Virus record (IMG/VR): IMGVR_UViG_3300046501_000233
Span: 1-64,000 of that record
Strand: one strand, 5' to 3'
Length of the DNA stretch: 64,000 bases
Origin: a virus
Shown here: positions 48,708 through 64,000 of the stretch, piece after piece
How the letters are laid out: each line of letters starts with the position of its first letter
Numbering within the stretch: the stretch's first letter is position 1
Made by a program: the position numbers and the translations under genes
The notes under the pieces: generated by a model
Told to the model about the DNA's origin: nothing
Seen by the model: the letters and a program-made list of their open reading frames with translations, nothing else
The model's database searches: none

Positions 48708-50969
48708 TTAGAGCGCGTAGTCCTTCTGGAATGCGACGTGGAACAGCTTCTGGTTCGAAGTCGTGTCGATCTTCGTCATGACCCGATACTGGGTGACGGA
48801 GGCGCCGAGGTTGAACACGTAGGTTCGCTCGGTGGAGCCATCGACAGGATCGATGACCGTGGTGGCGCTCGACGGATTAACCTGAGTGGCGAAGCCAGCA
48901 CCCGTCATCAGCTTGACTGCCGCGGTGTGGTAAGCCGGCTCCATGAACTCGTAACGCTCGATCACTCGGATCTGCGTCGAGGCCACTGGCAGCGTGCGGG
49001 TCTGCGTGATGTGCGTCGCGGTGATATCCGGACGCGACACGAGCACCGAGCTGTCGAGCAGGTTGATTGCCGCCTGACAGTCGACCGAACCGTTGAACAC
49101 TGCGCGGAGCGGCAGCAACGGAGGAACCGAACCACCCTGGCCAAGCAGGTACTTCTCGGGCTCCTGCAGATTGTACCAGATGCCGCCGACCTGGATCTCG
49201 TAAGAGAGGGTCGCGCCGGCCGGGACGATCGTGCCGGCGATGAGGTCGATGCCGAGGATGCCGCCGGACAGCTGCAGCGGAGCGAGCGTGACGACCTGTC
49301 GAGCCTGCTTGAACTTGCAGCGGTAGAGACGCATCCACAGATCGCGGAATGCATCGCCCTGCGCATATGCACCGTCCAGCACGTAGAAGAACGTGCCCTG
49401 GGTGAACTGCTGGCCTGGGACCGTACCAACCCAGTGGTCGGCGGCGGTGGTCAGCACGAGTGCGTAACGCTTGCCGCCCTGCAGATAAGTCGGCTGCAGC
49501 GGGACCGTGGTCTCGGTGTTCAGCTTCATGTCTGCGCGGAGCAGCGTGGTCTCGGCGATGACCTTCTTCAGGTCAGGCAGGCCGAAATCGGAGACCTCGA
49601 CGATAGCGACGTGGATCGAACCTTCGGCAGCGAGCCGCGTGATCCAGATGCCGACCGCGTCGAGCCACATGTTCTGGCCCTGGAGCCAGGTCTCGGCGAT
49701 CTGGGCGCCCGTCACCGTCTTGGTGATGGTCACCTTGTCCCAATAGGGTTCGTCGTAGGTGTCGATCCAGATCTGCCGCAGACGGATCCAGTTGTGGCCT
49801 GGATAGTCGATCATGGTGATCGACTCGACCTCGTAAGTTTCGCCGTCGCGATAGAAGCGCGAGCCGCCGTCGTAGGCGCCCGTCTGCCACCAGAGGCTGT
49901 TCGAACAGACCGTAAATTCGGCGCCGTAGCGGATGCGCTGACGTGCAACGGTCCGCTGCACCATGTCGAAAGACGACTGCGAGTAAGCCGCGATCTGGGT
50001 TTCGGCAACGATGCCGCCCGACAGCAGCCAGGCTTCGCGGTCATAAGCCGGAAGCAGCATGCCGTTCTTGATGTTGGCGGCGGGATCGAGCGGGTTGAAG
50101 ATCTGCAGAGCGGACGAGCCCTCCGCAGCGTTCGGCATACGAATGCCCTCTTCCACCTTCACATGCGACAACGGATCGTCGAGCTTCGACTTGACGTGAT
50201 CGAGGAAGAAGTTGGCGCTGGAGTCGACTGCGGTTGAGAGAACACCGTTCTTCGCTTCCAGAACCGCGAGGCGCTGGAGCGTACGGCCGAGCGAAGCCTG
50301 GTCGGCCTGGCCCTGGTTGCCCTGAGCCTTGATGCCGGCGATGTCGGATGCGAGCGTCTTGATCTGGAAGCCGGCCGAGACCTCAAACTCTTCCAAATCG
50401 ACGATGCGATCTTCGTGACCTTGCACGCTGGGGAGCTTATTGCTCTCGACCATCGTGATGGTGTCGACACCAGTGGGGCTCAGCGTCACCAGTGCGATGA
50501 TCGTGTAGCCTACGTCGACCAGCGGTGCGGTCGGATCCGGCGCTTCCGTGCCGATCATGACGTTCAGGTTGGCGATGCGCGAATGCACCATCGGCACAGC
50601 CTGCGGCTCGGCCTGACGGGTCTCAGCGTTGATCAGGAACTGGCGCGGACGAATATCGACGTCAGCTTCCGTGCCCCAGGTGACGATCGCCGCAATCTTC
50701 TTGCCGGCAACCGGCAGCTGCGTGATGAAGTCCTTGGACCAGCTGGTCGTGCCCGAGCTGTAAACCTTACCCGCCGAATAGAGCCGGCCAGTAGCGACCG
50801 AGATCTGCGTGACCGCAGACTTGGTTACGCCGAAGCCGGTGTATTTGGCGCGGTCCGTGATGCCGTCGAGAACGACGTGATCCAGAGCCGCCTCGGCGAA
50901 ATCCTGCAACGACGTGAAGTCGGTCGGATCATCGTCGATGTTCGGGTGAAAGATAATCTTATTTTCCAC
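48708..50969 (-). CDS. Large baseplate / tail fibre-associated protein
   Basis: 753 aa, beta-rich, in the gpH position after gpI. Confidence 0.65.
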   Translation of the reverse strand: MENKIIFHPNIDDDPTDFTSLQDFAEAALDHVVLDGITDRAKYTGFGVTKSAVTQISVATGRLYSAGKVYSSGTTSWSKDFITQLPVAGKKIAAIVTWGTEADVDIRPRQFLINAETRQAEPQAVPMVHSRIANLNVMIGTEAPDPTAPLVDVGYTIIALVTLSPTGVDTITMVESNKLPSVQGHEDRIVDLEEFEVSAGFQIKTLASDIAGIKAQGNQGQADQASLGRTLQRLAVLEAKNGVLSTAVDSSANFFLDHVKSKLDDPLSHVKVEEGIRMPNAAEGSSALQIFNPLDPAANIKNGMLLPAYDREAWLLSGGIVAETQIAAYSQSSFDMVQRTVARQRIRYGAEFTVCSNSLWWQTGAYDGGSRFYRDGETYEVESITMIDYPGHNWIRLRQIWIDTYDEPYWDKVTITKTVTGAQIAETWLQGQNMWLDAVGIWITRLAAEGSIHVAIVEVSDFGLPDLKKVIAETTLLRADMKLNTETTVPLQPTYLQGGKRYALVLTTAADHWVGTVPGQQFTQGTFFYVLDGAYAQGDAFRDLWMRLYRCKFKQARQVVTLAPLQLSGGILGIDLIAGTIVPAGATLSYEIQVGGIWYNLQEPEKYLLGQGGSVPPLLPLRAVFNGSVDCQAAINLLDSSVLVSRPDITATHITQTRTLPVASTQIRVIERYEFMEPAYHTAAVKLMTGAGFATQVNPSSATTVIDPVDGSTERTYVFNLGASVTQYRVMTKIDTTSNQKLFHVAFQKDYAL

Positions 50970-50987
50970 AGTGGTCTCCTGCGCCGC

Positions 50988-52220
50988 TTACGCGACTGGT
51001 TTGATTTCACCGAGCTTGAAGGAGCCAAGCTTCCGCCTGTCCCCGAGGCGCACGACCCGGTGAGTGATGGTGTTGACGAGGACGGTGTCTCGAAGCGGCT
51101 TCGCGGCGACGATCGCGTCGCAGGCGTTCCAGAGCTTCGAATTGTCGGTGATCATCCGGAAACCGTTCCGGAAGCGCCCGCCAAATCCCCTTGATGGTGA
51201 TCGCTTGCTGAAGACTTCGACCTTCGCTTCGGCGGTGAAGGCTTGGATGCCGTAGCGCGAATGGCCGCGATACCACTTGGCCCGAAGACCAGCTGGCAGA
51301 TCAGCCTTGTCGTGAAGAGAGAGTCGGTCGTAAACGAACTGAGCAGCGACCGTTTCGGTGCGGAAGTGACCGTCACCGCGGAACGACTTTGCAAAGGAGC
51401 GAAAGTTCTCCGCCGGCCGCGGCGTGTGGCGCTCGTAGATCGGGACCGGCTTGACGTTCTGAGGTGTCAAACCAGGCGTGATAGAGACCAGCTCGGAGGC
51501 GGCCTGGCTAATGCGAACCGTGACGATGTGGTCGGCGGCGTCAGACAGTTCGTAGAAGCCGTGACCACGAAACCCGGTGGAGCGGAAGTCGCGGGTGACA
51601 ATCCCGGCGAAGTGAAGCCGATCGACCGTGAGGCCGCCCAGCTCAACCGTGGACTCCAATCGAACCGGGACTTCAACGCCCTGACGATAGAGTGTTGCTC
51701 GCCGCCCGTAGATGCTGGGGCCGATGCTCTTCTCGCGGAAGTTATCGTTCCGGAAGGTGTAGCGCGGCATGCGGAAGTCGCGGGGGCCGGCGGGATCACG
51801 GATCAGGAACGGGTAGACACGAAGCTGCGGGAGCTTCCCGAGCCATTCGAGGAATACCTCGTTCGTCATGGCGGGGATGCGATACCCCCGCGCAGGCGGA
51901 ACGATCAGCTCGCGAAGCTTGGCGTCGACCAGTTCGAGATATGTCGCGACACCAAGCTCGGTGCCCTTCATACGGTGATGATCGACCGCGTCGGCGACGA
52001 CACGGCGCTTCTTGTCCTCGCTCCAGTCAGGATCCCAGATGTCGACCGACATAGACCAGGCCAGGTAGGCCAGGTCGTCGATGTGACACTTCCAAGGGTT
52101 CCAGAGATTGCGCAGGCGTTCGGTGTCGAGCGCCAGCAGTCGTTCAACCTGCGATGCCAGCGTGCGCTCATAGAACGTCGCGTTCGGCGGCAGGATGCCT
52201 TCCAACAGCCGAGCGGCCAT
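50988..52220 (-). CDS. P2 gpI-like baseplate protein with long C-terminal extension
   Basis: LPPNAT..ER...LWNP..C....LAYLAW.MSVD.WD..W...KR......H..KGT. Confidence 0.88.
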   Translation of the reverse strand: MAARLLEGILPPNATFYERTLASQVERLLALDTERLRNLWNPWKCHIDDLAYLAWSMSVDIWDPDWSEDKKRRVVADAVDHHRMKGTELGVATYLELVDAKLRELIVPPARGYRIPAMTNEVFLEWLGKLPQLRVYPFLIRDPAGPRDFRMPRYTFRNDNFREKSIGPSIYGRRATLYRQGVEVPVRLESTVELGGLTVDRLHFAGIVTRDFRSTGFRGHGFYELSDAADHIVTVRISQAASELVSITPGLTPQNVKPVPIYERHTPRPAENFRSFAKSFRGDGHFRTETVAAQFVYDRLSLHDKADLPAGLRAKWYRGHSRYGIQAFTAEAKVEVFSKRSPSRGFGGRFRNGFRMITDNSKLWNACDAIVAAKPLRDTVLVNTITHRVVRLGDRRKLGSFKLGEIKPVA

Positions 52221-52223
52221 GGG

Positions 52224-53093
52224 TTACTCCTGACGAGTGTTTAAGACCTGCACGCTTGCGGAGTTGATCCAGACGACGGCGTTGGTGCCGACATCGATGT
52301 CGGTGAAGTCGATCTCGACATCCTGCACACCCTCTTGCGTGAGGGCGGCGAGCACTGCAGTGCGCTTCAGATCTCGACCGATGATCGAGACCCGCTGCCG
52401 CAGATTGGTCAGCGCTTTGTTAATGTCATTCAGAACGACCGAAGCGTCGGGGCCGGGGTAGAGCCTGATGTAGGCGTTCAGATCCGCAGGGATCTTGGTG
52501 ACGGGTACGACGGCGATTTCATCCGTCAGCGGCTTGATGCCTTTTTGCATCAGCTTGTCGTAGACGGCGTCCAGAAGCGTCGACGTGGGGACCGGTTCGT
52601 TGCCCTTCGCCATCACGGTGACGGTCACACGGCCTGTGCCGCGCTCCGCAACCACGGTAACGTCGTGGACATCCGCTGAGACGCTGAGGGCGTGATAGAT
52701 ATACGCGCCGTGCGATCCCGCGGTCGAGAAGGTCTCCATCGAGATCTGAATGCGACGACGGAAATGATCATCCAGCTCGTTGGTGAGCCGGAAGCACTGG
52801 AAGCGAGCGCCGATAACGTCGAGATCGGACCCGGTGGCGAAAGGCAGCATGACTGCCCGAGCCGCAGCGTTGATGCGCTGCCGGACGATCATCTCGCCGT
52901 AGGCCTCGGTTTCCAGAATGATGTTGGTGCCGGACTGCTCCAGCTTCAGCGCTGCGGCGAGTGCCGGGTTCTTCTCCAGAACCTCGGCCTTGTAGATCGC
53001 GAGCAGAGCTTCGTAAGTGATCTCCTCGATCACCTTCGGGGGAGGAAGGCGAGCGAAGTCGATATAAAGGCGGGGTGACTCGAAAGACGGCAT
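52224..53093 (-). CDS. Baseplate J protein
   Basis: IDFARLPPP, RQRINAAARAVML.FA.GSDLD, STAGSHGAY.YHA, PLTD. Confidence 0.93.
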   Translation of the reverse strand: MPSFESPRLYIDFARLPPPKVIEEITYEALLAIYKAEVLEKNPALAAALKLEQSGTNIILETEAYGEMIVRQRINAAARAVMLPFATGSDLDVIGARFQCFRLTNELDDHFRRRIQISMETFSTAGSHGAYIYHALSVSADVHDVTVVAERGTGRVTVTVMAKGNEPVPTSTLLDAVYDKLMQKGIKPLTDEIAVVPVTKIPADLNAYIRLYPGPDASVVLNDINKALTNLRQRVSIIGRDLKRTAVLAALTQEGVQDVEIDFTDIDVGTNAVVWINSASVQVLNTRQE

Positions 53094-53125
53094 GTTCCCT
53101 CTTGATGATCAGAGTGGACGCCGCA

Positions 53126-53479
53126 TCAGACGAGCGTTGTTCGGACCGATTTGATTGCGCTCTCAACGAGATCGACACCTTCAGTGGTGATGGTGATCGA
53201 GCCATCCGGGCCAAGGGAGTCGATCACTACGCGCCGGACTTTGAACTCCGGCTCGTATGTGTTGATCGCTGCGATGGCGGCCATGATGCCGTTCATCAGG
53301 ACTTCCTCGTTTCCGGGCTTGTCCTGCATGTCGAGAAAACTCGATCCCCACCAAAGGCGCATGATGCGCCAGCGCAATCGCGTGGTGAGGATGGTCCTGA
53401 TGCTCTGCTTGATGCGCGGCCAGCCCGAGATGTACTCCCCAGTGTCCCGGTCGATATCGACCAGGTACTCGGTAGCCAT
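53126..53479 (-). CDS. gpW/gp25-family baseplate wedge protein
   Basis: IKQSIRTILTT...RIMR..WGS...D.P...AI..YEP. Confidence 0.88.
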   Translation of the reverse strand: MATEYLVDIDRDTGEYISGWPRIKQSIRTILTTRLRWRIMRLWWGSSFLDMQDKPGNEEVLMNGIMAAIAAINTYEPEFKVRRVVIDSLGPDGSITITTEGVDLVESAIKSVRTTLV

Positions 53480-53491
53480 GGCGGCCTCGCT

Positions 53492-53731
53492 TTACTTCCG
53501 GCGCTTGGCCGGCTTGTCTTCGGAGTCGACTTCCAAGAGGTGGATGTCGAACGAGCTGGTTGCGACTTCGTCGGTTTCTGCCGGAGCAGTAGCCGGCGCG
53601 TCGGCGGGCTTCTTCGCCAGCGCGTGGCCGAGATACTTGGCTTCGGCGTCCGTCAGCTCGATCGGAGTTCCGACTGCGACCAGAAGGCCATGTCGCCAGA
53701 TCTCGGTCGTGGTGGTGTAGGTCTTCTTCAT
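53492..53731 (-). CDS. Small virion-module protein
   Basis: GTPIELTDAEAKYL; AAGGA RBS. Confidence 0.6.
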   Translation of the reverse strand: MKKTYTTTTEIWRHGLLVAVGTPIELTDAEAKYLGHALAKKPADAPATAPAETDEVATSSFDIHLLEVDSEDKPAKRRK

Positions 53732-53742
53732 TCTTCTTTTCC

Positions 53743-55140
53743 TTATGACGCCGGGATCGGAAGCCCGGTCTGGGCAGGTCCGGCCATGACATCCGTGTGC
53801 TTGTGGGTGGCGCCGACGTTCTTGCCGTCGTGGGCCATCTTGCCGCCGGTCTGCTTGAAGCCTTCGCCGTTGAAGAGCCATTCGACTCCCCCGGCTGAAA
53901 TCTTCAGCGAGCCCGCTTCCTGGATGAAGGTGCTGTTGTCGCCGACGTTCGTCGTGATGGCGTTGTCGCGAACGCTGATCATGGAGTCGCCCTTGGACGC
54001 CTTAATCGTGTCCTCGGACATCTCGACCTTCGATCCGTTCTTGGCGGCGATGGTGATGAGATCCTCGGTCAGCGACATCTTGGTGTCGCCCTTCGAAATC
54101 TTCGCCTCTTCCTTGTTGACGTGGAAGGCCATCTTCTCGTTGACGATAAAGATGTCGTTCTCGTCGACAGCGATCGATGTCTTCGACTTGCCGTGCGTGA
54201 GCAGCCAGCCTTTGTCGGTGGCGAGGATCTGCAGCGTCTTCTCGGCGCCCTCTTTCGGGACGTCGGGCATCTCGCGCTTTTCCTGGGTCTTCTGACCCTC
54301 CCCGAGGGACTCGCCCTTGGGGTTCTCTTCCGGCTTGCGGCCGATCACAGTGTGGTGCGAGTTATTGGTCTCGCGCGTCCACATGTTCTGCTTGTCGGTC
54401 TTCTCGTCGTTCTTGGCCTGCATCAGGCCCTGCATCTTGCCCTGCAAGAAGCCCATCATGTTTCCGGCAGCGCCCTTGATGGCCTGCTGGATGGCGGCTT
54501 TCGCGAGACTGATCGGATCGCCTGCTGGGCCGATGACCTGATTGGCGAGAGCCTGAACCGATTGGACGTCGGGGATCTGGATGCCGTTCGGCCCGAAATT
54601 CAGGATCGATGGATCGATGCCGGCTTCCTGGAGCTTCGAAAGCCCCATGCTGATCGGGTCTATCTGCGAGAAGCTGGCAAACGATCCTGTGCTGGCAGAC
54701 CCGAAAATGCTCGGGGCCGGCTGCGATTTCTTGCTGTTCTCTTCATGCTCGATCAGCGTGACGATCTCGTCAGGCTTGCCGCTGGGCGACGGATGTTCCG
54801 GGCCGTAGTGATGCGGCTCGACGGTCGCCAGCTCGGCCATGCCGCCAACGGAGCGCATCAAGGCGTACTGCCCCTTTTTCGGGGGCACCGATTTCTTGAT
54901 GGTGCCATGGGAGAAGCTCTTCCACGGCTGCCAATCGCTCTTGAAGGTGGTCTCATTCGAAGGCGTCAAGCCTCCGGATGCTTCTTCGCTGCTCGGCTTG
55001 TCGTCCTCGCCGTCGTTCATCTTGACGTACCAGCGGTTCTTTTCGAACTTGACGTCAACGATCTTGCCGAGGCGCTCCTTGTTCTCGAACTTGCGCTCAA
55101 GATCCTGGAGCCGGCGCTCGGTCGCGAGTAGCGTCTTCAT
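53743..55140 (-). CDS. gpV-like baseplate spike with large internal insertions
   Basis: N-terminal OB-like SDWQPW...PPKKGQ; beta-helix repeats; C-terminal THKH metal-binding tip. Confidence 0.75.
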   Translation of the reverse strand: MKTLLATERRLQDLERKFENKERLGKIVDVKFEKNRWYVKMNDGEDDKPSSEEASGGLTPSNETTFKSDWQPWKSFSHGTIKKSVPPKKGQYALMRSVGGMAELATVEPHHYGPEHPSPSGKPDEIVTLIEHEENSKKSQPAPSIFGSASTGSFASFSQIDPISMGLSKLQEAGIDPSILNFGPNGIQIPDVQSVQALANQVIGPAGDPISLAKAAIQQAIKGAAGNMMGFLQGKMQGLMQAKNDEKTDKQNMWTRETNNSHHTVIGRKPEENPKGESLGEGQKTQEKREMPDVPKEGAEKTLQILATDKGWLLTHGKSKTSIAVDENDIFIVNEKMAFHVNKEEAKISKGDTKMSLTEDLITIAAKNGSKVEMSEDTIKASKGDSMISVRDNAITTNVGDNSTFIQEAGSLKISAGGVEWLFNGEGFKQTGGKMAHDGKNVGATHKHTDVMAGPAQTGLPIPAS

Positions 55141-55149
55141 CGGAAGGCC

Positions 55150-55725
55150 TTAGTCTTCCGGCGAAACGTCCAGCTCATCGTGCAGGGTGTTGCCGGCCAT
55201 ATGGATGTTGCCGCGAGCCGTGACCGTGCCGGGCGTCTGGGTGACGTGGCGGTTCTCGAAGAAGACCTGATCTCGATCGTAGGCACGGTTGTTGCCGATC
55301 GTCAGACATGTCTCCCATTCGACAACGCCGATCGTCACGCCGTCGCGGCGCAGGTCGGTATCGCTGAGGCGGGTGAGGTTAACTTCTGTGGCGGGGCCGG
55401 CGTTGAGGTCGCCGAACTTGTTGAGGTTTGCGAAGACTGCGATCTGTTCGATCCAGTCCCAGACGCGCATATCGCCGTCGCGCTGACCGCGACCGTCCGT
55501 CTCGACAACCACACACACGACCCGGAGGTAGGTGTTCAGCTCACCGGTGGAGTGATGCTTGGTCGGAGATTTCATGACGGCAACGCGGGCTGCCGGCGTG
55601 CGGAGGATCCACTCGCCGACATCCTTTTCGTCGAAGATGCCGTCGTACCATTCGACGTCCATCTTGGGGATGAGCGTCCGGATCGCGTCGCAGACGCGCT
55701 CGCGATATTCCAGGATCTTGCCCAT
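55150..55725 (-). CDS. Tail completion / terminator-like protein
   Basis: Position after neck genes (Mu gp37-like); TPAARVAV. Confidence 0.55.
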   Translation of the reverse strand: MGKILEYRERVCDAIRTLIPKMDVEWYDGIFDEKDVGEWILRTPAARVAVMKSPTKHHSTGELNTYLRVVCVVVETDGRGQRDGDMRVWDWIEQIAVFANLNKFGDLNAGPATEVNLTRLSDTDLRRDGVTIGVVEWETCLTIGNNRAYDRDQVFFENRHVTQTPGTVTARGNIHMAGNTLHDELDVSPED

Positions 55726-56207
55726 TAGCCCTTACCTTGGTCGATGTAATCGCGCAGGATCTTGGCGATCCGCCGATTGTTCTCATCGGAGAAGCCGATG
55801 AACGGGCGCGGTGGGATGCCGGCCTTGGGCCGATACTTGCCGCGCATGTTCTTGACACCCTTCTGGTGCCACTCGGACTTCGGGTCCGTGCTCTCGATCG
55901 AGAAGCCGTTCTTGCTGAGCCCTTTGACCTTGATCCCCTTGTAGAGATCACCTTTGTCGTAGAGCGGCTTGTCGTGGCCTTTCAGCTGCACGGTGAGTGC
56001 GGCGAGGTTCGGCCATCGTTCGCCGTCCGGCCCGGTACGGGTGCGGAAGCGGTTCTGCGTCGAGCGCAGCATGTATTTTGATGCCTCGTCCCAAGCCGGC
56101 CGCATATTGCGTGACCGGTCGGTGATTTCTTCGAGGCGCTTCTTCAGCAGCGAGATCTTCTCGGCGCTGAAGCGGATCTTGACCGATCCGTTACGCTCGC
56201 GAGGCAT
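55725..56207 (-). CDS. Virion morphogenesis protein (Mu gpG / P2 gpS-like)
   Basis: RF....GPDG.RW..L...L...G.L...IPPRPFIGFS. Confidence 0.85.
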   Translation of the reverse strand: MPRERNGSVKIRFSAEKISLLKKRLEEITDRSRNMRPAWDEASKYMLRSTQNRFRTRTGPDGERWPNLAALTVQLKGHDKPLYDKGDLYKGIKVKGLSKNGFSIESTDPKSEWHQKGVKNMRGKYRPKAGIPPRPFIGFSDENNRRIAKILRDYIDQGKG

Positions 56208-56613
56208 TGAAGGAGCCGCCGCGGCGCTTGATGTTCAGGTCGGTGTCACCCGTCCCGTCGCCATCAGTGTCCTGCGGCGGAAGGCCGAGGCCGACCTTGC
56301 CCTGGCTGATCTTGTCGAGCAGAGCGAGTGCATCCTCGTAGCGGACGCGCATTTCATCGGTCCGGCCGCCGCGCTGAAGGGCGATCTTGTAGACCGCAAT
56401 ATCGATCGCGCAGTTGCGGACGACTCCGGGGACTGCCGGGAGCGGCAGCGAATATTGGGCTGACAGATAGGCGTCGCAGATCTCGTCTGCGGAAGCCAAT
56501 CCACGATCGACAATCGCCGGGTCGGGGGTGCCGTCCCGGTCGTTGTCAGCCAAACGAACAAGGAGGTCTTCGCCGTAGAGATTGTCGATATCTTCCTTGG
56601 TCGCGTAGGGCAT
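56191..56613 (-). CDS. gp436/DUF1320 (Mu gp36-like) head-tail connector
   Basis: YAT..D...A...DAYL..QY.LPL...DIAVY....RYEDA...L..I..GKV.LG. Confidence 0.88.
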   Translation of the reverse strand: MPYATKEDIDNLYGEDLLVRLADNDRDGTPDPAIVDRGLASADEICDAYLSAQYSLPLPAVPGVVRNCAIDIAVYKIALQRGGRTDEMRVRYEDALALLDKISQGKVGLGLPPQDTDGDGTGDTDLNIKRRGGSFNASRA

Positions 56614-57017
56614 TACTTGTCCTTAGCCTTGTCGGCTTTCGCCTTTGCCTTCTTCGCAGCGGCGGCCTTTTCAGCAGCTTCCTTTTCGGTAGCAGCCTTC
56701 TCAGCAGCAGCCTTCTCAGCAGCAGCCTTTTCAGCAGCAGCCTTTTCAGCAGCTTCCTTCTCGGCAGCAGCTTTTTCAGCGGCTTCCTTTTCGGCAGCGG
56801 CAGCGATGGCAGTGTCGTCGGCGGGGTCAGAGGTTGACGTCGAGGCCGGGTTGTCAGCAGGCACCTTGGCCTCGGCGGCAACCACAGTCTCGTCGCCCTC
56901 GGCATAGTCCGGCAGCATGGCAGCGCGCTGGGCGCGGACTTCTTCGCTCACCAGCCGGCGGTTATTGCGCAGCTTGGCGGCGGCCTCACGGGCGCGGTAG
57001 CCCTTGGGGACGATCAT
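56613..57017 (-). CDS. Capsid-adjacent protein with (EKAAA)n repeats
   Basis: About 9 tandem EKAAA/EKEAA units. Confidence 0.7.
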   Translation of the reverse strand: MIVPKGYRAREAAAKLRNNRRLVSEEVRAQRAAMLPDYAEGDETVVAAEAKVPADNPASTSTSDPADDTAIAAAAEKEAAEKAAAEKEAAEKAAAEKAAAEKAAAEKAATEKEAAEKAAAAKKAKAKADKAKDK

Positions 57018-57084
57018 ACGGGTGTTTCTCCAAACAAAAGCAAAACCCCTCCCGGCGAACCGAGAGGGGCAATTGCGTTGAGGC

Positions 57085-58062
57085 TTAGGCGGCCAGCATG
57101 TGCTTGAACGCGACGATGCGGATCAGCTTGCTGTCGTACACGCGCTCCCAGTTCGTGCCGGTGGCGAGTTCAGCGTTGGTCGGCGTGACGCCGGCCGAGC
57201 TGCCCTTCCACTTCACGCCGCGGGGGTGCATGACCCACTGGCGACGGTTCACGATGTACTCCTGGCCCATGCCCTTCAGAGCCTGGCGCTCCACTTCGAC
57301 CGGCACCTTCGGCGACTTCTCGCCGTAGCCGATCGCGCCCTGACCGAAGATGTAGGTCGTGAACACGCGGGTTGCGCCCGCGCCCGACACCGGCATGCTG
57401 TCATCCTCGATGACGGTCTTGCCCATGTAGGTCGGGATGGTGAGCTTGCCCTGGCTGTCGGCCACGTAGTCGATGAGGTCAGCCTTGACCATCGCCTTCA
57501 GGGTCAGCGAGTGAACGGCAACGCCGGTCAGGCCACCCTGCTCGTCGCCGAGCAAGAACGCCGAGTCGATGAACGAGTCAGCATCGAAATACTGAGCGCC
57601 GCCGGTGCCGGCCGAGATGTCATTGACGTTCGCAGCCATCGTAGCTGCGCCCATCGCGCCGGCCAGCGAGGCGAGCAGCGCCTTCTGGAAGCGGATGTCC
57701 CACCAGGTGGCGAAGCGGTCAGCGATCGCTTCGATCGGATCGGCGCCGGACAGGTCGGCCGCGAGGTCCGACGTACCGAATGCCTTACCGCGCAGCAGCT
57801 TCACTGCCACGTCCTGGCCGGTCGTCATACGACCAACGGTCAGGTCAGCGGTGTCGTCGAGCACGACTTCGGCGTCCTCGGAGTCGAGGTCGTTGAAGAA
57901 GGGCATGTTGACGGTCTTGCCGGCGATTTCGGCGTCGATCGTCGAGGTCAGGTCGGTGATGATACCCGACTGGAAGAGCCGCGACTTCTGGGTCGTCAGC
58001 GTCTGGACGTAGTTGTTGAACTTGGTCGGGACAATCATGTCCGCGAGACGGGTCTCAGTCAT
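57085..58062 (-). CDS. Major capsid protein
   Basis: Follows the scaffold; T.LAD.IVP..F..Y, NMPFFNDL, DL..DLSGADP, HPRG.KW; strong codon bias. Confidence 0.9.
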   Translation of the reverse strand: MTETRLADMIVPTKFNNYVQTLTTQKSRLFQSGIITDLTSTIDAEIAGKTVNMPFFNDLDSEDAEVVLDDTADLTVGRMTTGQDVAVKLLRGKAFGTSDLAADLSGADPIEAIADRFATWWDIRFQKALLASLAGAMGAATMAANVNDISAGTGGAQYFDADSFIDSAFLLGDEQGGLTGVAVHSLTLKAMVKADLIDYVADSQGKLTIPTYMGKTVIEDDSMPVSGAGATRVFTTYIFGQGAIGYGEKSPKVPVEVERQALKGMGQEYIVNRRQWVMHPRGVKWKGSSAGVTPTNAELATGTNWERVYDSKLIRIVAFKHMLAA

Positions 58063-58104
58063 TTCTCACTCTTGAGGTTCTGACTGGCCTGACCCCTGAA
58101 ACGC

Positions 58105-58131
58105 AAAAAGCCGCCCCCGAGGGAGCGGCTT
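58105..58131 (-). terminator. Intrinsic terminator-like hairpin between scaffold and capsid genes
   Basis: AAGCCGCTCCCTCGGGGGCGGCTTTTTGCGTTTC on minus. Confidence 0.65.
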
Positions 58132-58157
58132 CGTATTCGTGCGAGCTGCGTGAAGAC

Positions 58158-59042
58158 TTAGTCTTCGACGCCGGCTTCTGCCTTCAGGCGCTTGGCCAGT
58201 TCTGGTTTGGTGTTTTCGAGCAGCATCTGCTGCGTGAAGTTCCGGCTCTCTTCCTTCCAGGGGTTCTTTTCCTTGGAAGCAGGAGCGCCGTGGTTGGCCG
58301 GCTTGACGCCGATGCCGCGCTTGTCGTCGGGCTTGAACAGTCCAGCCCGCGTCTCGCGGATCTCACCAAGGAGATCTGCGACCGAAACTGGGGTGCCCAG
58401 GTGGTCCTTGATCCGGGGATTGCCGTTGGCATCGATCACGTCCACCTTGATCTGCCCATCGACCAACGAGGTCTTGATGGACTTGGTGGCGATCATCTCG
58501 ATGGCTTCGCGCGCATCATCCAGCGGATTGAGTTTTGCAAGTTCATCCTTGATGGCGTTGTCGCGCATCAGAGTCTGAAGCTGCCCCGTGAGGCTGCCGA
58601 TCGTCTTCTCCGCGCCGGTGACCTTCTGGGTCAGCTCGGTCTCGCGCAGAGTGAACTGCTGAGTGAGCTGGTCCTTGAGGGTGCCGAACTTGGTGTTGGC
58701 GATCGCTTCAGCTTCTTTCTCGGGATCGAGTGCTGACAGTCGTGCTGCAGTTTCCATGGCGGTGCGAGCCGCGTCCGGAGTGATGTCACCGAAGGCCGTA
58801 GCACGCTCGATGGCGGTGCGGGCGACGGTGGGATCCAGGCCTTCGAAAGGCTGGAGCTGCGCCTTCAAGACTGAAACGCTCTGGCGCTCGGCGCCGAGGG
58901 CGGTCTTGAGACCGGTGACATTGTCGAGTTCGAAGCCTTCGACCGGCGTTACGTTGACATAGAACTTCCCGTTCCGTTCGACGTAAAACCCGCGATGCGC
59001 TTCATCGACGGTGTTGAGATCAGTAACGACTGCTTTAAGCAT
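58158..59042 (-). CDS. Capsid scaffolding protein
   Basis: MLKAVV.DL..VDE.HR.FY.E..GKF...GLKTALGAER, coiled coil, NPWK..S.NFTQQ; start set at ATG 59042. Confidence 0.8.
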   Translation of the reverse strand: MLKAVVTDLNTVDEAHRGFYVERNGKFYVNVTPVEGFELDNVTGLKTALGAERQSVSVLKAQLQPFEGLDPTVARTAIERATAFGDITPDAARTAMETAARLSALDPEKEAEAIANTKFGTLKDQLTQQFTLRETELTQKVTGAEKTIGSLTGQLQTLMRDNAIKDELAKLNPLDDAREAIEMIATKSIKTSLVDGQIKVDVIDANGNPRIKDHLGTPVSVADLLGEIRETRAGLFKPDDKRGIGVKPANHGAPASKEKNPWKEESRNFTQQMLLENTKPELAKRLKAEAGVED

Positions 59043-59398
59043 ATCCATCCCGGAAATGCGGGGCATCCCGCCCCTCGTAGAGAAAAGACCTTCAGCATCC
59101 CGCCGAAGGTCCGGTGTCATCCCCGAGGTTCGGGGAATCGGTAGAGACAGCACTGATCGTTCCAAGGGCCATCCCGGCTCTCGGTTGGTTTGATCAGCGA
59201 TGTCGAATTGGTGCGTAGGGCCGGAGACGATCCAGCACCTACACGGTAGGTTCTCAGCGGCGGCGCGGGCGTGCGACGCGCTCTTTAGGCATCCCTGCTC
59301 GTCTTGGTGGAGTGCGAGCTGGGACCGCTGAAGTCGCGCTCGACTGGTGGCACCCAGGAGCGCGAAAAAGAGAGGGCCGCTTCGCCGCATCCCGCGGC
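59039..59398 (-). ncRNA. Highly structured 5' leader with five GGGAU-loop hairpins
   Basis: Hairpins at 59384-59398, 59162-59184, 59087-59111, 59060-59074 and 59039-59059 have different stems but the same loop; additional stems lie between them. Confidence 0.7.
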
Positions 59399-59399
59399 A

Positions 59400-59437
59400 G
59401 AAACGAAAAAGCCCGCCGCGAATGAACGGGGCGGGCT
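59400..59437 (-). terminator. Intrinsic terminator immediately upstream of the structured leader
   Basis: AGCCCGCC...GGCGGGCT followed by TTTTCGTTTC on minus. Confidence 0.75.
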
Positions 59438-59459
59438 GTCTTGGATCTTGGTGTTGCGC

Positions 59460-59747
59460 TTATGCAGCGCTGCGCAATGCCTCGGGCTCGATCACCGTGT
59501 ACTGGGTGAAGGTCTCGGGCTTGCAAAATTCTATGATGCCGTCCTCGTGGAGGAGGACGATGTCTCCTGCGATGCAGGAGAGGATGCCGAAGGGGGAGAG
59601 CGTCGAGAACCCGCCCTTGTTGTTGATTTGCAGCTCACCCGACTGGATGCGCTCGATCAACCACTGCGGCGGCGTGTCGTCAGCAATCTGACCCCAGAGA
59701 GGCAACTTGAAGGCTTGGACAATCGAAAGTCGTTCGAGCAGCTTCAC
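59460..59747 (-). CDS. Conserved phage hypothetical protein
   Basis: GDIVL...G....CKPETF...Y motif; GGAG RBS with GTG start. Confidence 0.6.
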   Translation of the reverse strand: MKLLERLSIVQAFKLPLWGQIADDTPPQWLIERIQSGELQINNKGGFSTLSPFGILSCIAGDIVLLHEDGIIEFCKPETFTQYTVIEPEALRSAA

Positions 59748-59853
59748 GGGCACTCCATTTGCATTCTGCATGACTTATACGCACGGTTGGGCGCATTTGT
59801 CAACCCCTGTAGAGCAAAAAGCAAAACAAAATGCAAATGAGTTCGAACTGTGG

Positions 59854-59991
59854 TCAGTTCTTGGCCGCAATGCGGAAAATAAACCACGCAACCAGGGCAA
59901 AGGGTGTCATCAGCCCGAGACCAACGGCGAGGAGAACGATGCCGGCCGCCTTGCGGGCGGGGCTGATCTTGACGGGGGGTGCTTCAGACAT
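59854..59991 (-). CDS. Small membrane protein (45 aa, not in ORF track)
   Basis: MSEAPPVKISPARKAAGIVLLAVGLGLMTPFALVAWFIFRIAAKN; overlaps the upstream stop. Confidence 0.5.
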   Translation of the reverse strand: MSEAPPVKISPARKAAGIVLLAVGLGLMTPFALVAWFIFRIAAKN

Positions 59992-60286
59992 TGGAGGCCT
60001 TTGCAGGATGCAGCGGCGTGACCGAGGCGGCGGTGCGCTTCTCCCCGCGCTTACGCGGAGGCTTAGACACCGTCGCCTTGTCGTTCATGACCGACCGGCG
60101 GGTTTTGACGTCGAACTTCGGCTTGAAGCACACGGCGCAGCAGTAGGCCTCACTTCCAACGAGCTTGCCCATGAACACCACGGAGGCGGGGATCATCCGG
60201 ACGAGCGCCCGGACGTCTTCCCCACGCTCCTTGGAGCAGGGCTCGCATCGGTATTCCGATGCTTCAATGTTGAGAACGATTGCCAT
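59984..60286 (-). CDS. Zn-ribbon protein with basic tail
   Basis: CEPC...CAVC; KPPRKRGEKR. Confidence 0.55.
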   Translation of the reverse strand: MAIVLNIEASEYRCEPCSKERGEDVRALVRMIPASVVFMGKLVGSEAYCCAVCFKPKFDVKTRRSVMNDKATVSKPPRKRGEKRTAASVTPLHPAKASNV

Positions 60287-60325
60287 TTGCTTTCGGCTAC
60301 CATGCGCTTGCAAGCGCGTCAACGA

Positions 60326-61894
60326 TCAAACCTCGCGCGTCGGACGGCTCTGGCCGTTCGGGAAGTCAAACGTCTTCTTGGCCGGAGCGTTCCCTTCTGT
60401 GTCGCCCGCTTCAGCGTCTGGGTGCTCGATCGTTGTCTTGGCGCCGGGGTCCGACGTCAGTTCGCCGGACGAGATCAGCGCATCGACCTTGGACCAGAAC
60501 GCGATCTCCTCGTCCTTACTGAACTCGGCGCTCAGCAAGTTGCGATTGACCATCTCGTCCAGCAAGACCGGACGGGAGATGCCGCGCTTTTCCCAGAGCT
60601 TCACGAGCTGGGCGATCTCGGTGATCTTGTCCTTGGTGTTCGAGAACTCCGTGTTCAGTGCGACCGTCACGTTGCTGTAATCGGCGCCGGTCCACTGGCT
60701 CATGAACCGGATGGCCTTCTCGATCGTGTCCTGCGCATTGATCGCCATATCGTGGACGACCGAGTGGACTCGGGTCTCCTGGATGTCGCGCTCGTTCTGC
60801 GGCACATACTGGCGGTGCGTGCCCGTGACCGGGTTCAGCGCCATCATGTCCATCTGCATTTCGAGGGCGTTGAGATCCTTGAAGCCGGACTCGATCGCAG
60901 TGCCCTTGGGTTCGACGTAATACCAGCGGCCATTGGCCTCGGGCGCGTAGAGCACTTTCCAAGGGCCGATCTCGAAGCCGGTCTGATCGTCCGGGTCGAT
61001 CTGCACGCCGGAGCACGCCAGCATCGGGAAGCGGGCGGCCGACAGGATCGAGCGCTGATCCGACGTCGAGATCCAGTGCTCGATCTGCTTGTAGGCCAGA
61101 TCGATGAACACCGGACGCACGAGATAGTCGGCTTCCTTTTCACCGGCATAGAACGTGGCGAACGGCACCTCGGCCATTTCGATCGGGGTCTCTTCGATAA
61201 AGTCCCAGTTCGAACCGCCGGACGTCGCCTTCTGCTCCCAGAGCTGAACGATGCCCTTGGTGCTGCCGGGGTCGACCTCGATCACACGCATCTGGTTGTA
61301 GAGGACTTCCTTGAAGCCTTCACGCGCCGAGCGCTGACCGCGGATGCGGACGTGGACAGTCTTGGTGTCGCCGCCGACGTATTCGTCATAGGCAGCCGCC
61401 ACGTCGTCCACCTTGTAGAGCTTCATGAAAGGACGAGCGCCGGACTGCTTCTGCTCGGCGAGGTTCTTCATGTTGAAGGTGTCAGGGTGATCGACCAGGA
61501 CGTGCGACATGCCGTCCAGAAAGCCGTTGTTGAACATCTGGTGGGCAAAGACGTGCAGGTGATTGCCCTGCAGATCGATGTCCTGCTGCCACAGGTCGAG
61601 ATCGGGCGTTGAGTTCGTGAGCTTGAGCAGCGTACGGAACGGCTTGGCTGACGCAGCGTCCACAGCCTCGCGCAGCTTGTTCAACGCGAAGGTCGAAGCG
61701 AGCCGCGCATTGTAACGCAGGTCGCTCTCCTTCTCGTACTGCGGAAGGAAGCTCTTGCCCTGCGCACGCATGGTCTCGGTGCCGCCATAGACGGCGCGGA
61801 GCATCGCGGTGCGCTCCCGCATGGTGGCGGCTGCCGAAGACAGTTCGCCGGGATTACCCGACTGTGGAGACGGGGTGTAAACGATATCGACCAT
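60326..61894 (-). CDS. Portal protein (DUF4055-like)
   Basis: GGT..MR..G..FLPQ...E....Y..RL; DIDLQGN.L..FA; follows terL. Confidence 0.85.
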   Translation of the reverse strand: MVDIVYTPSPQSGNPGELSSAAATMRERTAMLRAVYGGTETMRAQGKSFLPQYEKESDLRYNARLASTFALNKLREAVDAASAKPFRTLLKLTNSTPDLDLWQQDIDLQGNHLHVFAHQMFNNGFLDGMSHVLVDHPDTFNMKNLAEQKQSGARPFMKLYKVDDVAAAYDEYVGGDTKTVHVRIRGQRSAREGFKEVLYNQMRVIEVDPGSTKGIVQLWEQKATSGGSNWDFIEETPIEMAEVPFATFYAGEKEADYLVRPVFIDLAYKQIEHWISTSDQRSILSAARFPMLACSGVQIDPDDQTGFEIGPWKVLYAPEANGRWYYVEPKGTAIESGFKDLNALEMQMDMMALNPVTGTHRQYVPQNERDIQETRVHSVVHDMAINAQDTIEKAIRFMSQWTGADYSNVTVALNTEFSNTKDKITEIAQLVKLWEKRGISRPVLLDEMVNRNLLSAEFSKDEEIAFWSKVDALISSGELTSDPGAKTTIEHPDAEAGDTEGNAPAKKTFDFPNGQSRPTREV

Positions 61895-61912
61895 TTCTGG
61901 TGTGTCCTGACA

Positions 61913-63376
61913 TTACCAGTCAAGGATCACGGCGCGACGGGGGCCGAGCAGCGAGTTGAATGCGTCAGACGCGGCATCGACCTGGTCGTCGTTGACACCG
62001 AGCGGGAATAGCTCCAGCTCGTCGAGGAACGCTTGGTTCCAGCTGCCTCTGACCAGTTTGACGTTTCGCGCTTCGCACTGCGCCGCAAATGCGGACGCTC
62101 GCGTTTCTTTCGGACCCGTGGGACGGATTGCCTTGACGTTATAGCCGGCGAGCCGGCGGATGAAACTCTGGGCCTGGCTCTTGCCGGCCTGACCTGGATC
62201 TTGCGGAAGGAAGATCTGCGTGGAGCGACCGTCCTCTGCTGCGGTCGAGAAGACCTTTCGCTCGACAGCCAGCGGCGTGTCGCGCATGCGGATGACGTTC
62301 TCGATGTAGAAGATGCCAGCAGAGTCCTTGGACATCTTGACGCCGACCGTGTAGTCGCCGTCCTTCGATGCCGCGAGATCCCAAGCCCGCACGACCGATC
62401 GCTTGGCCGGCAGCTCATTCACGATCTCGAACCACGAGGCCTTGAACATGCCGCCGTCGTCGGACATCGGCTTCTGCTGATAGAGAGCCGCAAACGACCG
62501 CTCGCCGAGAACGTCCTGACGATCCATCAGAGCGGCGTAGGAGAAACGGTTGGGAGCCAATGGCTCGTTCGGCATGCGCCGCAGCGGATCGCCGGGCACC
62601 GTGCCGTCATCGTTGAGGATCAGCTCCTTGGTGCCGTCTTCCTTGGTGATCGACTTGGTGTACGGGAGCGCCGGCAGATACAGGATTTCCCAGGGGAGAC
62701 CCTTGCCGTCGTTCATCAGCTCGATAAGGCGGCCGGCGATGTCGTCGTAGTGCCAGCGCGTGAGCGTGAGCACGATTGCCGCGTCTTCTTCGAGACGGGT
62801 GTAGACGACGTCTCGATACCAGGCCCACTGGTCTTCGCGGAAACCTGGCGACTCCACTTCCTTTCGATCCTTGATCGGATCGTCGATGAGGAAGAGATGG
62901 GCGCCCTTACCGGTCGTGCCCGAGCCGACGCCGACCGCGTAATACTGACCGCCCTGCTCCAGCTGCCAATCGTCTGCGGCGCGCTGGTCGGTTCGGATAC
63001 GGACATCGGGGTAGAGCGTTTGGAACTGCTCGCCCTTGATGATATCGCGGACGTTACGACCGAAGCCGGTGGCGAAGTCGGCGTTGTATGAAGCCGAGAT
63101 GACATTCTTGTGGGGGTTCCGGGCCATGTAATAGGCCGGGAAGCGGCGGGTCGACAGCTCGCTCTTTCCGTGCCGAGGCGGCGCGAAGAGCATCAGACGC
63201 TTGATTTCACCCCGCTCAACAGCCTCAAGCTTCTTCGCCACGATGTGGTGGAAGGGATCGGCGTAGTATTTGGGGAGCGTGTAAGTGGTGAAGTCGATGA
63301 GGTTTTCGCGGCCACGACGGCGATGCAATACCTCGGCTGCCGCCGCCTCGGGTGAGACGTCGGTGAGATCGAGCAC
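61913..63376 (-). CDS. terL: Terminase large subunit
   Basis: APPRHGKS, TGKGA...IDDPIK, TRWH.DD.AG, ALYQQ.P, WDLA, DDQVDA. Confidence 0.95.
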   Translation of the reverse strand: MLDLTDVSPEAAAAEVLHRRRGRENLIDFTTYTLPKYYADPFHHIVAKKLEAVERGEIKRLMLFAPPRHGKSELSTRRFPAYYMARNPHKNVISASYNADFATGFGRNVRDIIKGEQFQTLYPDVRIRTDQRAADDWQLEQGGQYYAVGVGSGTTGKGAHLFLIDDPIKDRKEVESPGFREDQWAWYRDVVYTRLEEDAAIVLTLTRWHYDDIAGRLIELMNDGKGLPWEILYLPALPYTKSITKEDGTKELILNDDGTVPGDPLRRMPNEPLAPNRFSYAALMDRQDVLGERSFAALYQQKPMSDDGGMFKASWFEIVNELPAKRSVVRAWDLAASKDGDYTVGVKMSKDSAGIFYIENVIRMRDTPLAVERKVFSTAAEDGRSTQIFLPQDPGQAGKSQAQSFIRRLAGYNVKAIRPTGPKETRASAFAAQCEARNVKLVRGSWNQAFLDELELFPLGVNDDQVDAASDAFNSLLGPRRAVILDW

Positions 63377-63380
63377 GGTG

Positions 63381-63579
63381 AACTTTCAGTTGAAGTTTAG
63401 ACTCCGCCCGCGGCCTTGCGGCGAACGCCCCCGAAGCGGCGACTTGGGCAGAGTGAAAAAGGAAGACCCCACGCCCGCTGGCCTAGCGGATCGTCATGTG
63501 CTCATGACTCCTGGTGCGGTCAGACGTTCACTGGGTAACTAGATGTCCAGCTGCAGCGTCTGATCCCGAGGGGGGACTT
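63381..63579 (-). ncRNA. Candidate structured RNA upstream of terL
   Basis: Nested stems with C(UUCG)G and GCAA tetraloops and multibranch junctions. Confidence 0.45.
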
Positions 63580-63591
63580 GTTCTCGTGGCC

Positions 63592-64000
63592 TTACTGGCC
63601 GGCGGGCACCTTGCGAACGTAAGGACGTCCGAAGGTCACATCGGCAGCGACAGCGCCAGCGGCGAACGTCAGGTAAGCCTGAAAGCTCGTCGAGGTGTCG
63701 GTGCCAGCCAGTGGCGTGTTGATGGGCGTGCGCAACGTGCCGGACAGCGCGCCCGCTCCGTCCATGACGACGGCTGCAGTCGAACTGGGCGACAGAGCGG
63801 TGTCACAGGATAGCGACAGGGCGCGGAGACCCGTGTGACCCGCAGCGAGGGTGAAGTCGATGCACGCTTCGACCTGATCACCGGCAGCGCCGGAATAGGC
63901 CGCGGTGTTTTGGAAGTTGACCAGACGGCCAGCCGCATTGCTCGTGCCGGAGACCACGATCTTCTGAGCGGCAGCGCCGTTCTGCGTGGTTTTCGAGGCA
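63592..64000 (-). CDS. 3' part of a gene truncated by the window edge (Ala/Gly/Thr-rich, beta-rich)
   Basis: Frame stays open to the end of the window. Confidence 0.6.
   Translation of the reverse strand, partial: ASKTTQNGAAAQKIVVSGTSNAAGRLVNFQNTAAYSGAAGDQVEACIDFTLAAGHTGLRALSLSCDTALSPSSTAAVVMDGAGALSGTLRTPINTPLAGTDTSTSFQAYLTFAAGAVAADVTFGRPYVRKVPAGQ

Follow-up and report, generated by a model that had tools for sequence, protein, structure and literature searches.

The targets of CsrA and RsmA-RsmE, such as the glgC and hcnA leaders, and their sponge RNAs, such as CsrB and RsmZ, offer GGA in the loops of several hairpins with different stems, and in the target leaders one of these sites lies over the ribosome-binding site. 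The repeat of CsrB reads C-AGGAU-G, and the SELEX consensus of CsrA includes RGGAUG. A second type of loop-defined RNA site is boxB of phages lambda and P22, a 5-bp stem with a pentaloop that is read by the N proteins. Also, the scaffolding gene of P22 is reportedly subject to post-transcriptional autoregulation, and we know of no RNA operator for it. More generally, to our knowledge, little is known beyond a few model phages about how phages come to make scaffold and capsid in large excess over portal and terminase. The leader described here gives a concrete handle on head-protein levels, being a sequence-defined RNA, absent from Rfam, with covarying stems, that recurs before head genes in unrelated phages. 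Elements of this kind are known; the GGGAY variant is new and widespread.

The stretch of DNA analysed (the window, 64,000 nt) is part of a complete virus record of 108,080 bp. The relatives of this phage are two Bradyrhizobium genome contigs and Bradyrhizobium phage BDU-MI-1, a cultured member of the group, on B. diazoefficiens USDA110. On the minus strand, the genes for the large terminase, the portal, a 100-residue protein with a CxxC...CxxC motif (Zn protein) and a 103-residue protein (p103) are followed by a terminator-like hairpin (T1), a gap of about 400 nt that contains the leader, the scaffold gene and the major head protein gene (Table 1). A hairpin array starting right after a terminator had been proposed in the first-pass annotation of this DNA, and T1, read from 59430 to 59412, occupies that place; a GC hairpin with a U-run like T1 also stands ahead of the leader in many relatives. 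No sigma-70-like promoter is found at 58900-60400 or at 50000-64000, and no repeat of the leader is present elsewhere in the phage genome. Strong terminator-like hairpins, with 11 pairs and a U-run, lie directly 3' of the scaffold gene and of the capsid gene, and head and tail genes continue on the same strand downstream of the second one.

Table 1. Coordinates of the genes and RNA features around the scaffold leader, in the order of transcription of the minus strand
Feature	Position	Strand	Description
Large terminase gene	61913-63376	minus	
Portal gene	60326-61894	minus	
Zn protein gene	59984-60286	minus	100 aa, CxxC...CxxC
p103 gene	59460-59771	minus	103 aa
Terminator-like hairpin T1	59412-59430	minus	3' of the p103 gene, 5' border of the leader; 6 pairs then CTTTTTCGTT
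hp1	59384-59398	minus	GCCGC-GGGAU-GCGGC; only in the window phage, absent from this place in relatives
Distal structured RNA	59253-59365	minus	about 113 nt; P1 hairpin, then three-way junction P2, P3, P4
tRNA remnant	59209-59244	minus	7-bp acceptor stem GUGUAGG/CCUACGC, T-arm-like hairpin, ACCA; D and anticodon arms lacking
hp2	59162-59184	minus	CCGAGAGCC-GGGAU-GGCCCUUGG; one mismatch, one G.U; loop 59175-59171
hpX	59120-59136	minus	UCCCCG-loop-CGGGGA; GGGGAU copy held in the stem by a CCCC run
hp3	59086-59112 (with U-run to 59080)	minus	GC-rich, 11-12 bp, GGGAY loop, terminator-like
hp4	59060-59074	minus	GGGGC-GGGAU-GCCCC (family loop GGGAY)
hp5	59039-59059	minus	GCAUUUCC-GGGAU-GGAUAUGC; one U.U mismatch
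Head scaffolding protein gene	58158-59042	minus	PHROG 206, E = 9.6e-36, profile match from residue 3
Terminator-like hairpin between scaffold and capsid genes	58107-58132	minus	
Major head protein gene	57085-58062	minus	PHROG 247
Terminator-like hairpin after the capsid gene	57045-57070	minus	

The five GGGAU hairpins proposed for the minus strand (hp1 to hp5) are all found at the places given for them, and they are more clustered than expected by chance. Over the 64-kb window, CGGGATG occurs at chance level (16 copies against 15.7 expected from shuffles), and five of the copies are clustered on one strand within 356 nt. If the minus-strand copies outside the cluster (24 in 108 kb) are taken as background, a Poisson estimate gives 0.08 copies expected per 356 nt and P ~1e-5 after correction for the number of windows. 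Moreover, the leader is the only place in the 108-kb genome where C-GGGAY-G hairpins of four or more perfect pairs occur. The GGGAU copies number seven, one being masked in the stem of hpX (59136-59120) and another lying in the distal RNA (59294-59290). An outer stem, CGCUGAUC/GAUCAGUG, lengthens hp2 into a long bulged hairpin (59151-59199), and hp3 has the sequence of a predicted intrinsic terminator, with 12 pairs followed by TTTCTCT, its family consensus being GGCCC..GGGCC then UUUUAUCAC. The RNA fold of the leader region is more stable than that of shuffled sequence (z = -4.4). The folding energies of the sense and antisense strands are equal, so that energy does not distinguish the strand, and the proposal that G-U pairs favour the minus strand fails for the region as a whole and is retained for hp3, where 25 G.U pairs are counted against 8 A.C. 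The orientation of the leader relative to the head genes is constant.

The last hairpin bears directly on the start of the scaffold gene. The GGGA of the ribosome site is in the loop of hp5, 5-6 nt ahead of the AUG and 5 nt ahead of it in the window, and the start AUG itself (59042-59040) is paired in the stem, in agreement with the first-pass annotation. The scaffold starts at the second AUG, at 59042, because in one related contig (L253) the AUG of the hp5 loop is out of frame with the scaffold, and because the scaffold of BDU-MI-1 is annotated from the second AUG. A function of the loops as decoy start codons was rejected, since most hp2 loops and many hp3 loops read GGGAC.

An ORF of 410 aa (59390-58158) stays open through the whole leader in frame with the scaffold. 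Together with the equal folding of both strands, this would fit a signal that does not act as RNA, either an N-terminal extension of the scaffold or a DNA-level site for packaging, a promoter or an activator. However, in relatives the open frame upstream of the scaffold start comprises 16-139 codons and is not conserved, so that the reading frame expected of a coding extension is not kept. As the frame varies in this way and the scaffold profile begins to match at residue 3 of the shorter protein, the leader is taken to be non-coding. Also, a DNA-binding dimer would require the opposite of conserved loops on compensating stems, the orientation is always sense to the head genes among the matches listed, and G.U pairs in hp3 are three times as numerous as A.C. 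An explanation outside RNA is consequently considered very unlikely.

The conservation of these structures was evaluated in leaders collected from 28 IMG/VR loci, whose scaffolds are 62-73% identical, from BDU-MI-1 and from the two Bradyrhizobium genome contigs. In all the collected leaders (about 30 related contigs), hp5, hp4, hp3, hpX and hp2 are in register with the start codon. In an alignment of 28 sequences realigned with a covariance model (A4), 92.4% of the cells are paired, as compared with 37-46% when the partners are slid by 1-3 columns, and double-sided changes are observed in 26 of the 49 pairs; the observed values are reached by none of 500 shuffles. This covariation is carried by the stems of hp2, whose outer and middle helices show double-sided changes at every pair, and of hp3, with such changes in 9 of 11 pairs. 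The arms of hpX are invariant and its loop is variable (27 sequences). The stem of hp4 is invariant in 27 distinct sequences, and its loop varies between U and C at the fifth base alone. Since hp4 and hp5 are both invariant, their pairing is not proven by covariation.

Across every aligned sequence, the C-G closing pair of hp2 to hp5 and the GGGA that follows are invariant, and the fifth loop position is C or U with one exception. Then, of the common loop and closing pair proposed at first, the closing pair holds, and the conserved form of the loop is GGGAY instead of GGGAU. Moreover, the check that had been suggested, covariation among the leaders of homologous scaffold genes, gave conserved loops together with the covarying stems of hp2 and hp3. 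RNAalifold pairs the first G of the loop with the fifth base; by this prediction, the C-GGGAY-G tip may be a GGA triloop with a closing G-Y pair. A search of the 64-kb window gave no Rfam match at the gathering score, and at E up to 10 the region 58900-59600 returned only noise; for 12 other loci with such arrays (see below), tRNAs were the sole Rfam matches. The leader is a genuine structured RNA that is conserved among relatives and displays its fixed loop on stems that covary.

Because a conserved fixed loop is presented on covarying stems and hp5 holds both the ribosome site and the start codon, the reading that fits best is that of a multivalent binding site. The leader would be a docking site for several copies of a candidate RNA-binding factor that controls the translation of the head genes and possibly attenuation, a reading to which we assign a probability of roughly 45%. 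In this case, the proximal 160 nt would offer the same C-GGGAY-G tip on four different stems, those of hp2, hp3, hp4 and hp5, and the tips would be recognized by one sequence-specific RNA-binding factor other than CsrA, most likely a protein that the phage produces late in infection. This factor would bind in several copies side by side, and the occupancy of the tips would set the output of the scaffold-capsid unit at two points. Binding to hp5, with GGGA in its loop and the AUG in its stem, would control the initiation of translation, and binding to hp3, a terminator-like hairpin, might control attenuation. What is observed is the structure, its conservation and covariation, its position, the absence of CsrA and a wide but patchy spread among phage head modules; the binding of a protein, its identity and the sign of its effect are inferred. 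The first-pass idea of a multivalent protein-binding RNA is thus kept in its general form, being the best-fitting reading of the element, and its association with CsrA is abandoned for the reasons that follow.

The likeness to the CsrA/Rsm systems is in the layout. Hairpins with different stems carry GGA in their loops, one of them lies over the Shine-Dalgarno sequence, and C-GGGAU-G is one base from the CsrB repeat and fits the RGGAUG of the SELEX consensus. These similarities would be expected of a CsrA/RsmA target or sponge. However, no CsrA is found in the phage that carries the window array or in the host genomes searched. As the first-pass annotation had remarked for the window, no CsrA-like gene is visible, and the CsrA profile (PF02599) matches nothing in the phage, nothing above the cut-off in two host genomes and nothing in 61 genomes of the host family, whereas the control genomes gave matches. 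The leader is therefore not a CsrA target, and a link to CsrA/RsmA is regarded as extremely unlikely. Further differences are that the first base of the loop is always G in arrays of the window type, that GGGAY strings are seen in phage head modules and not in host genes (in the host genomes and the listed matches), and that C-AGGAY-G strings are not seen in phages among the matches listed. In the two host genomes, no array is present beyond the phage copy. Also, triple CGGGAYG matches in 401 genomes of the host phylum are at control level, and among 30 loci fetched from these genomes a string of at least three hairpins is observed in one phage contig only (G001).

A second comparison is with the nut sites of lambda-type phages, which share with the leader the 5-bp stem, the fixed pentaloop on a phage transcript and the terminator-like hairpins that come after. 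Such a likeness to boxB would suit an antitermination mechanism, in which a small phage protein, or the leader RNA itself, would be loaded at the hairpins onto RNA polymerase and lead to read-through of the later terminator-like hairpins. The coding strand does carry four of these in series (T1, hp3, post-scaffold and post-capsid), the location of strings in other phages, within the preceding ORF or at 50-100 nt from the following gene, would be compatible with it, and proteins of the N type are too divergent for detection by homology. However, known nut sites are single, belong to early operons and come with boxA. A single boxB with a GNRA-like pentaloop after an early promoter is not what is seen here, where 3-5 copies with another loop sequence, GGGAY, lie in the late head region and the last copy overlaps the start codon. 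This overlap of hp5 with the start site points to translation; moreover, hp3 is itself one of the hairpins to be read through, no NusG-like gene is found in the phage, and terminator calls in the region do not exceed those in shuffled sequence (12 against 12.8). Antitermination is thus judged an unlikely explanation.

GGGAY strings are not confined to one scaffold family. In a pattern scan of IMG/VR that required at least three hairpins with different stems within 200 nt, with flanking genes annotated with PHROGs, such strings are observed just upstream of the scaffold or capsid genes of at least about 12 further head-module lineages among the matches listed, all of them on the sense strand and with GC contents of 0.41-0.69. 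One contig (L053), whose portal and scaffold-like proteins have no similarity to those of the window, displays the same layout, with loop spacings of 31 and 17 nt compared with 32 and 18 nt in the window, and its last loop contains the start AUG. The string lies ahead of a PHROG 206 scaffold in L207, L234 and L253, and just upstream of the capsid gene in L178, L216 and L224, this capsid gene coming after a PHROG 206 scaffold gene in L178 and L224. In L157, it is located within the 5' portion of a scaffold gene from another family, and in L118, L152, L205 and L223 it falls within the 3' end of the head protease gene, with an HK97-type capsid gene 50-150 nt further on. When loops of the GGAGY or AGGAY type were scanned for as controls, the matches listed were tandem repeats only, with no true arrays, and a literature search on GGGAU hairpins in phages and on the GP20-b motif found nothing usable.

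In the protease genes, GGGAY is read mostly as Arg-Asp. A peptide repeat, LRDAG, was rejected as the whole cause of these in-gene arrays, because L205 and L223 have one hairpin that is read in a different frame, and the stems reach 12-14 bp; for the same reasons, the constraint in these two genes is on the nucleic acid. A widespread LRD(A/V)G motif is present in the C-terminal tail of head proteases of the ClpP type and overlaps GGGAY hairpins in some phages only; in SfI and D14E, the peptide is kept with other codons and no hairpin is formed. No array is found in the named relatives of two array-bearing lineages (SfI, vB_PaeS-D14E, vB_DshS-R5C and Pan1), from which the distribution of the strings is seen to be patchy. 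Moreover, in several other lineages the last hairpin is 25-65 nt from the start codon or inside the upstream ORF, so the mechanism cannot in general be one of covering the ribosome site.

This spread over unrelated modules bears on what reads the loops. A lineage-specific phage protein is difficult to reconcile with one loop shared by unrelated head modules at GC contents of 41-69%, a spread that a universal partner would explain. The ribosome would be such a partner if the GGGA loops were Shine-Dalgarno-like standby sites on which 30S subunits land, raising the translation of abundant virion proteins without any dedicated protein. In accordance with this, the GGGA of the hp5 loop is at Shine-Dalgarno distance from the AUG, other genes of the window phage use weak ribosome sites of the AGGA/GGAG type, and the strings are always ahead of scaffold or capsid genes among the matches listed. 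However, neither the invariant pyrimidine at loop position 5 nor the C-G closing pair would be needed for pairing with the 3' end of 16S rRNA, for which GGGAG would be better, and no consensus GGAGY-loop strings appear among the matches listed from the same scan. Also, a loop of 3-5 nt is a poor partner for a helix of 4-5 bp, and close relatives of array-bearing phages manage without strings. We therefore hold landing pads for the ribosome to be possible but rather doubtful.

Another reading of the same distribution, which we advance tentatively and find somewhat improbable, is that the GGGAY string is a portable RNA tag, acquired independently by unrelated tailed-phage head modules and read by a common feature of head assembly. 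The reader of the tag would be scaffold, capsid or procapsid protein that has not assembled, or else a small phage regulator that is mobile. If so, the translation of scaffold and capsid would be coupled directly to the demand of assembly, which would add a general and new level of feedback to phage morphogenesis and give scaffold autoregulation of the P22 type a molecular basis. The comparison with P22 is apt in that both cases concern the level of scaffold synthesis, set after transcription, here through a candidate RNA element; the difference is that GGGAY strings are found ahead of capsid genes and within protease genes as well. A reading in which the element is specific for the scaffold is weakened by these other contexts of the strings, some of which separate the scaffold gene from the capsid gene, while others fall within protease genes or precede scaffold-like genes that are not homologous.

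Neither the searches for CsrA and NusG-like genes nor the neighbours of the leader gave a binding partner for the docking-site reading preferred here. The genes for the Zn protein and p103 are kept just upstream of it throughout the lineage, including L253 and L234, and adjoin an array in the window lineage only. The Zn protein has an invariant CxxC-32-CxxC motif and a basic tail, and p103 is mostly beta. Neither has a Pfam or PHROG match, and comparison of their structure models with the PDB gave no confident fold match, the best for p103 being a weak one to the decoration protein of phage L (E = 0.02) and those for the Zn protein being zinc-ribbon-like noise. Also, a profile of the Zn protein has no match in five other array-bearing contigs, which are 10-64% complete. 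A reader of the GGGAY loop, if found, would represent a new RNA-protein or RNA-ribosome recognition pair and could yield a portable part for the control of expression.

The distal part of the gap, between T1 and hp2, holds further RNA features. Among the intervening stems listed in the first-pass annotation, UCGCGCUC/GAGCGCGA and UCAGCGG/CCGCUGA are real and correspond to P1 and P2 of the distal RNA, whereas ACCUAC/GUAGGU is located in the tRNA remnant. In the distal RNA, P1 spans 59365-59334, and P2 is formed by 59332-59324 with 59261-59254. The sequence is nearly invariant in 25 sequences, with compensatory changes in P1, P2 and P3, and CCGCAC is present in both of its large invariant loops. 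Neither an Rfam match nor a second copy in the phage genome was found for the distal RNA, which could act in cis or be a small stable RNA made on the same transcript as the tRNA.

In the window, ARAGORN detects no tRNA. At the place of the remnant, between the distal RNA and the hairpin string, a tRNA-Asn(GUU) is present in about half of the relatives, and a related contig (L026, 2700-2790) has a tRNA-like sequence that is longer than the remnant, shares its 3' end and has a possible GUA anticodon. The string of hairpins could then be an element of processing or stability, which would protect the 5' end of the scaffold-capsid mRNA after excision of the upstream tRNA or structured RNA, or serve as nuclease sites. 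This agrees with hp2 starting only a few bases past the 3' end of the tRNA, and with the presence of tRNA genes directly upstream of strings in the window family and in L253, L216 and L224. However, a stabilizer would need stems and not an invariant loop with its closing pair, and many strings have no tRNA nearby, which makes a role in processing or stability quite unlikely. The tRNA genes just upstream of GGGAY strings outside the window family number six in L253 (7398-8550), two in L216 (1942-2192) and one in L224 (3410-3482), and the head-gene leader may be a preferred site for phage tRNA genes.
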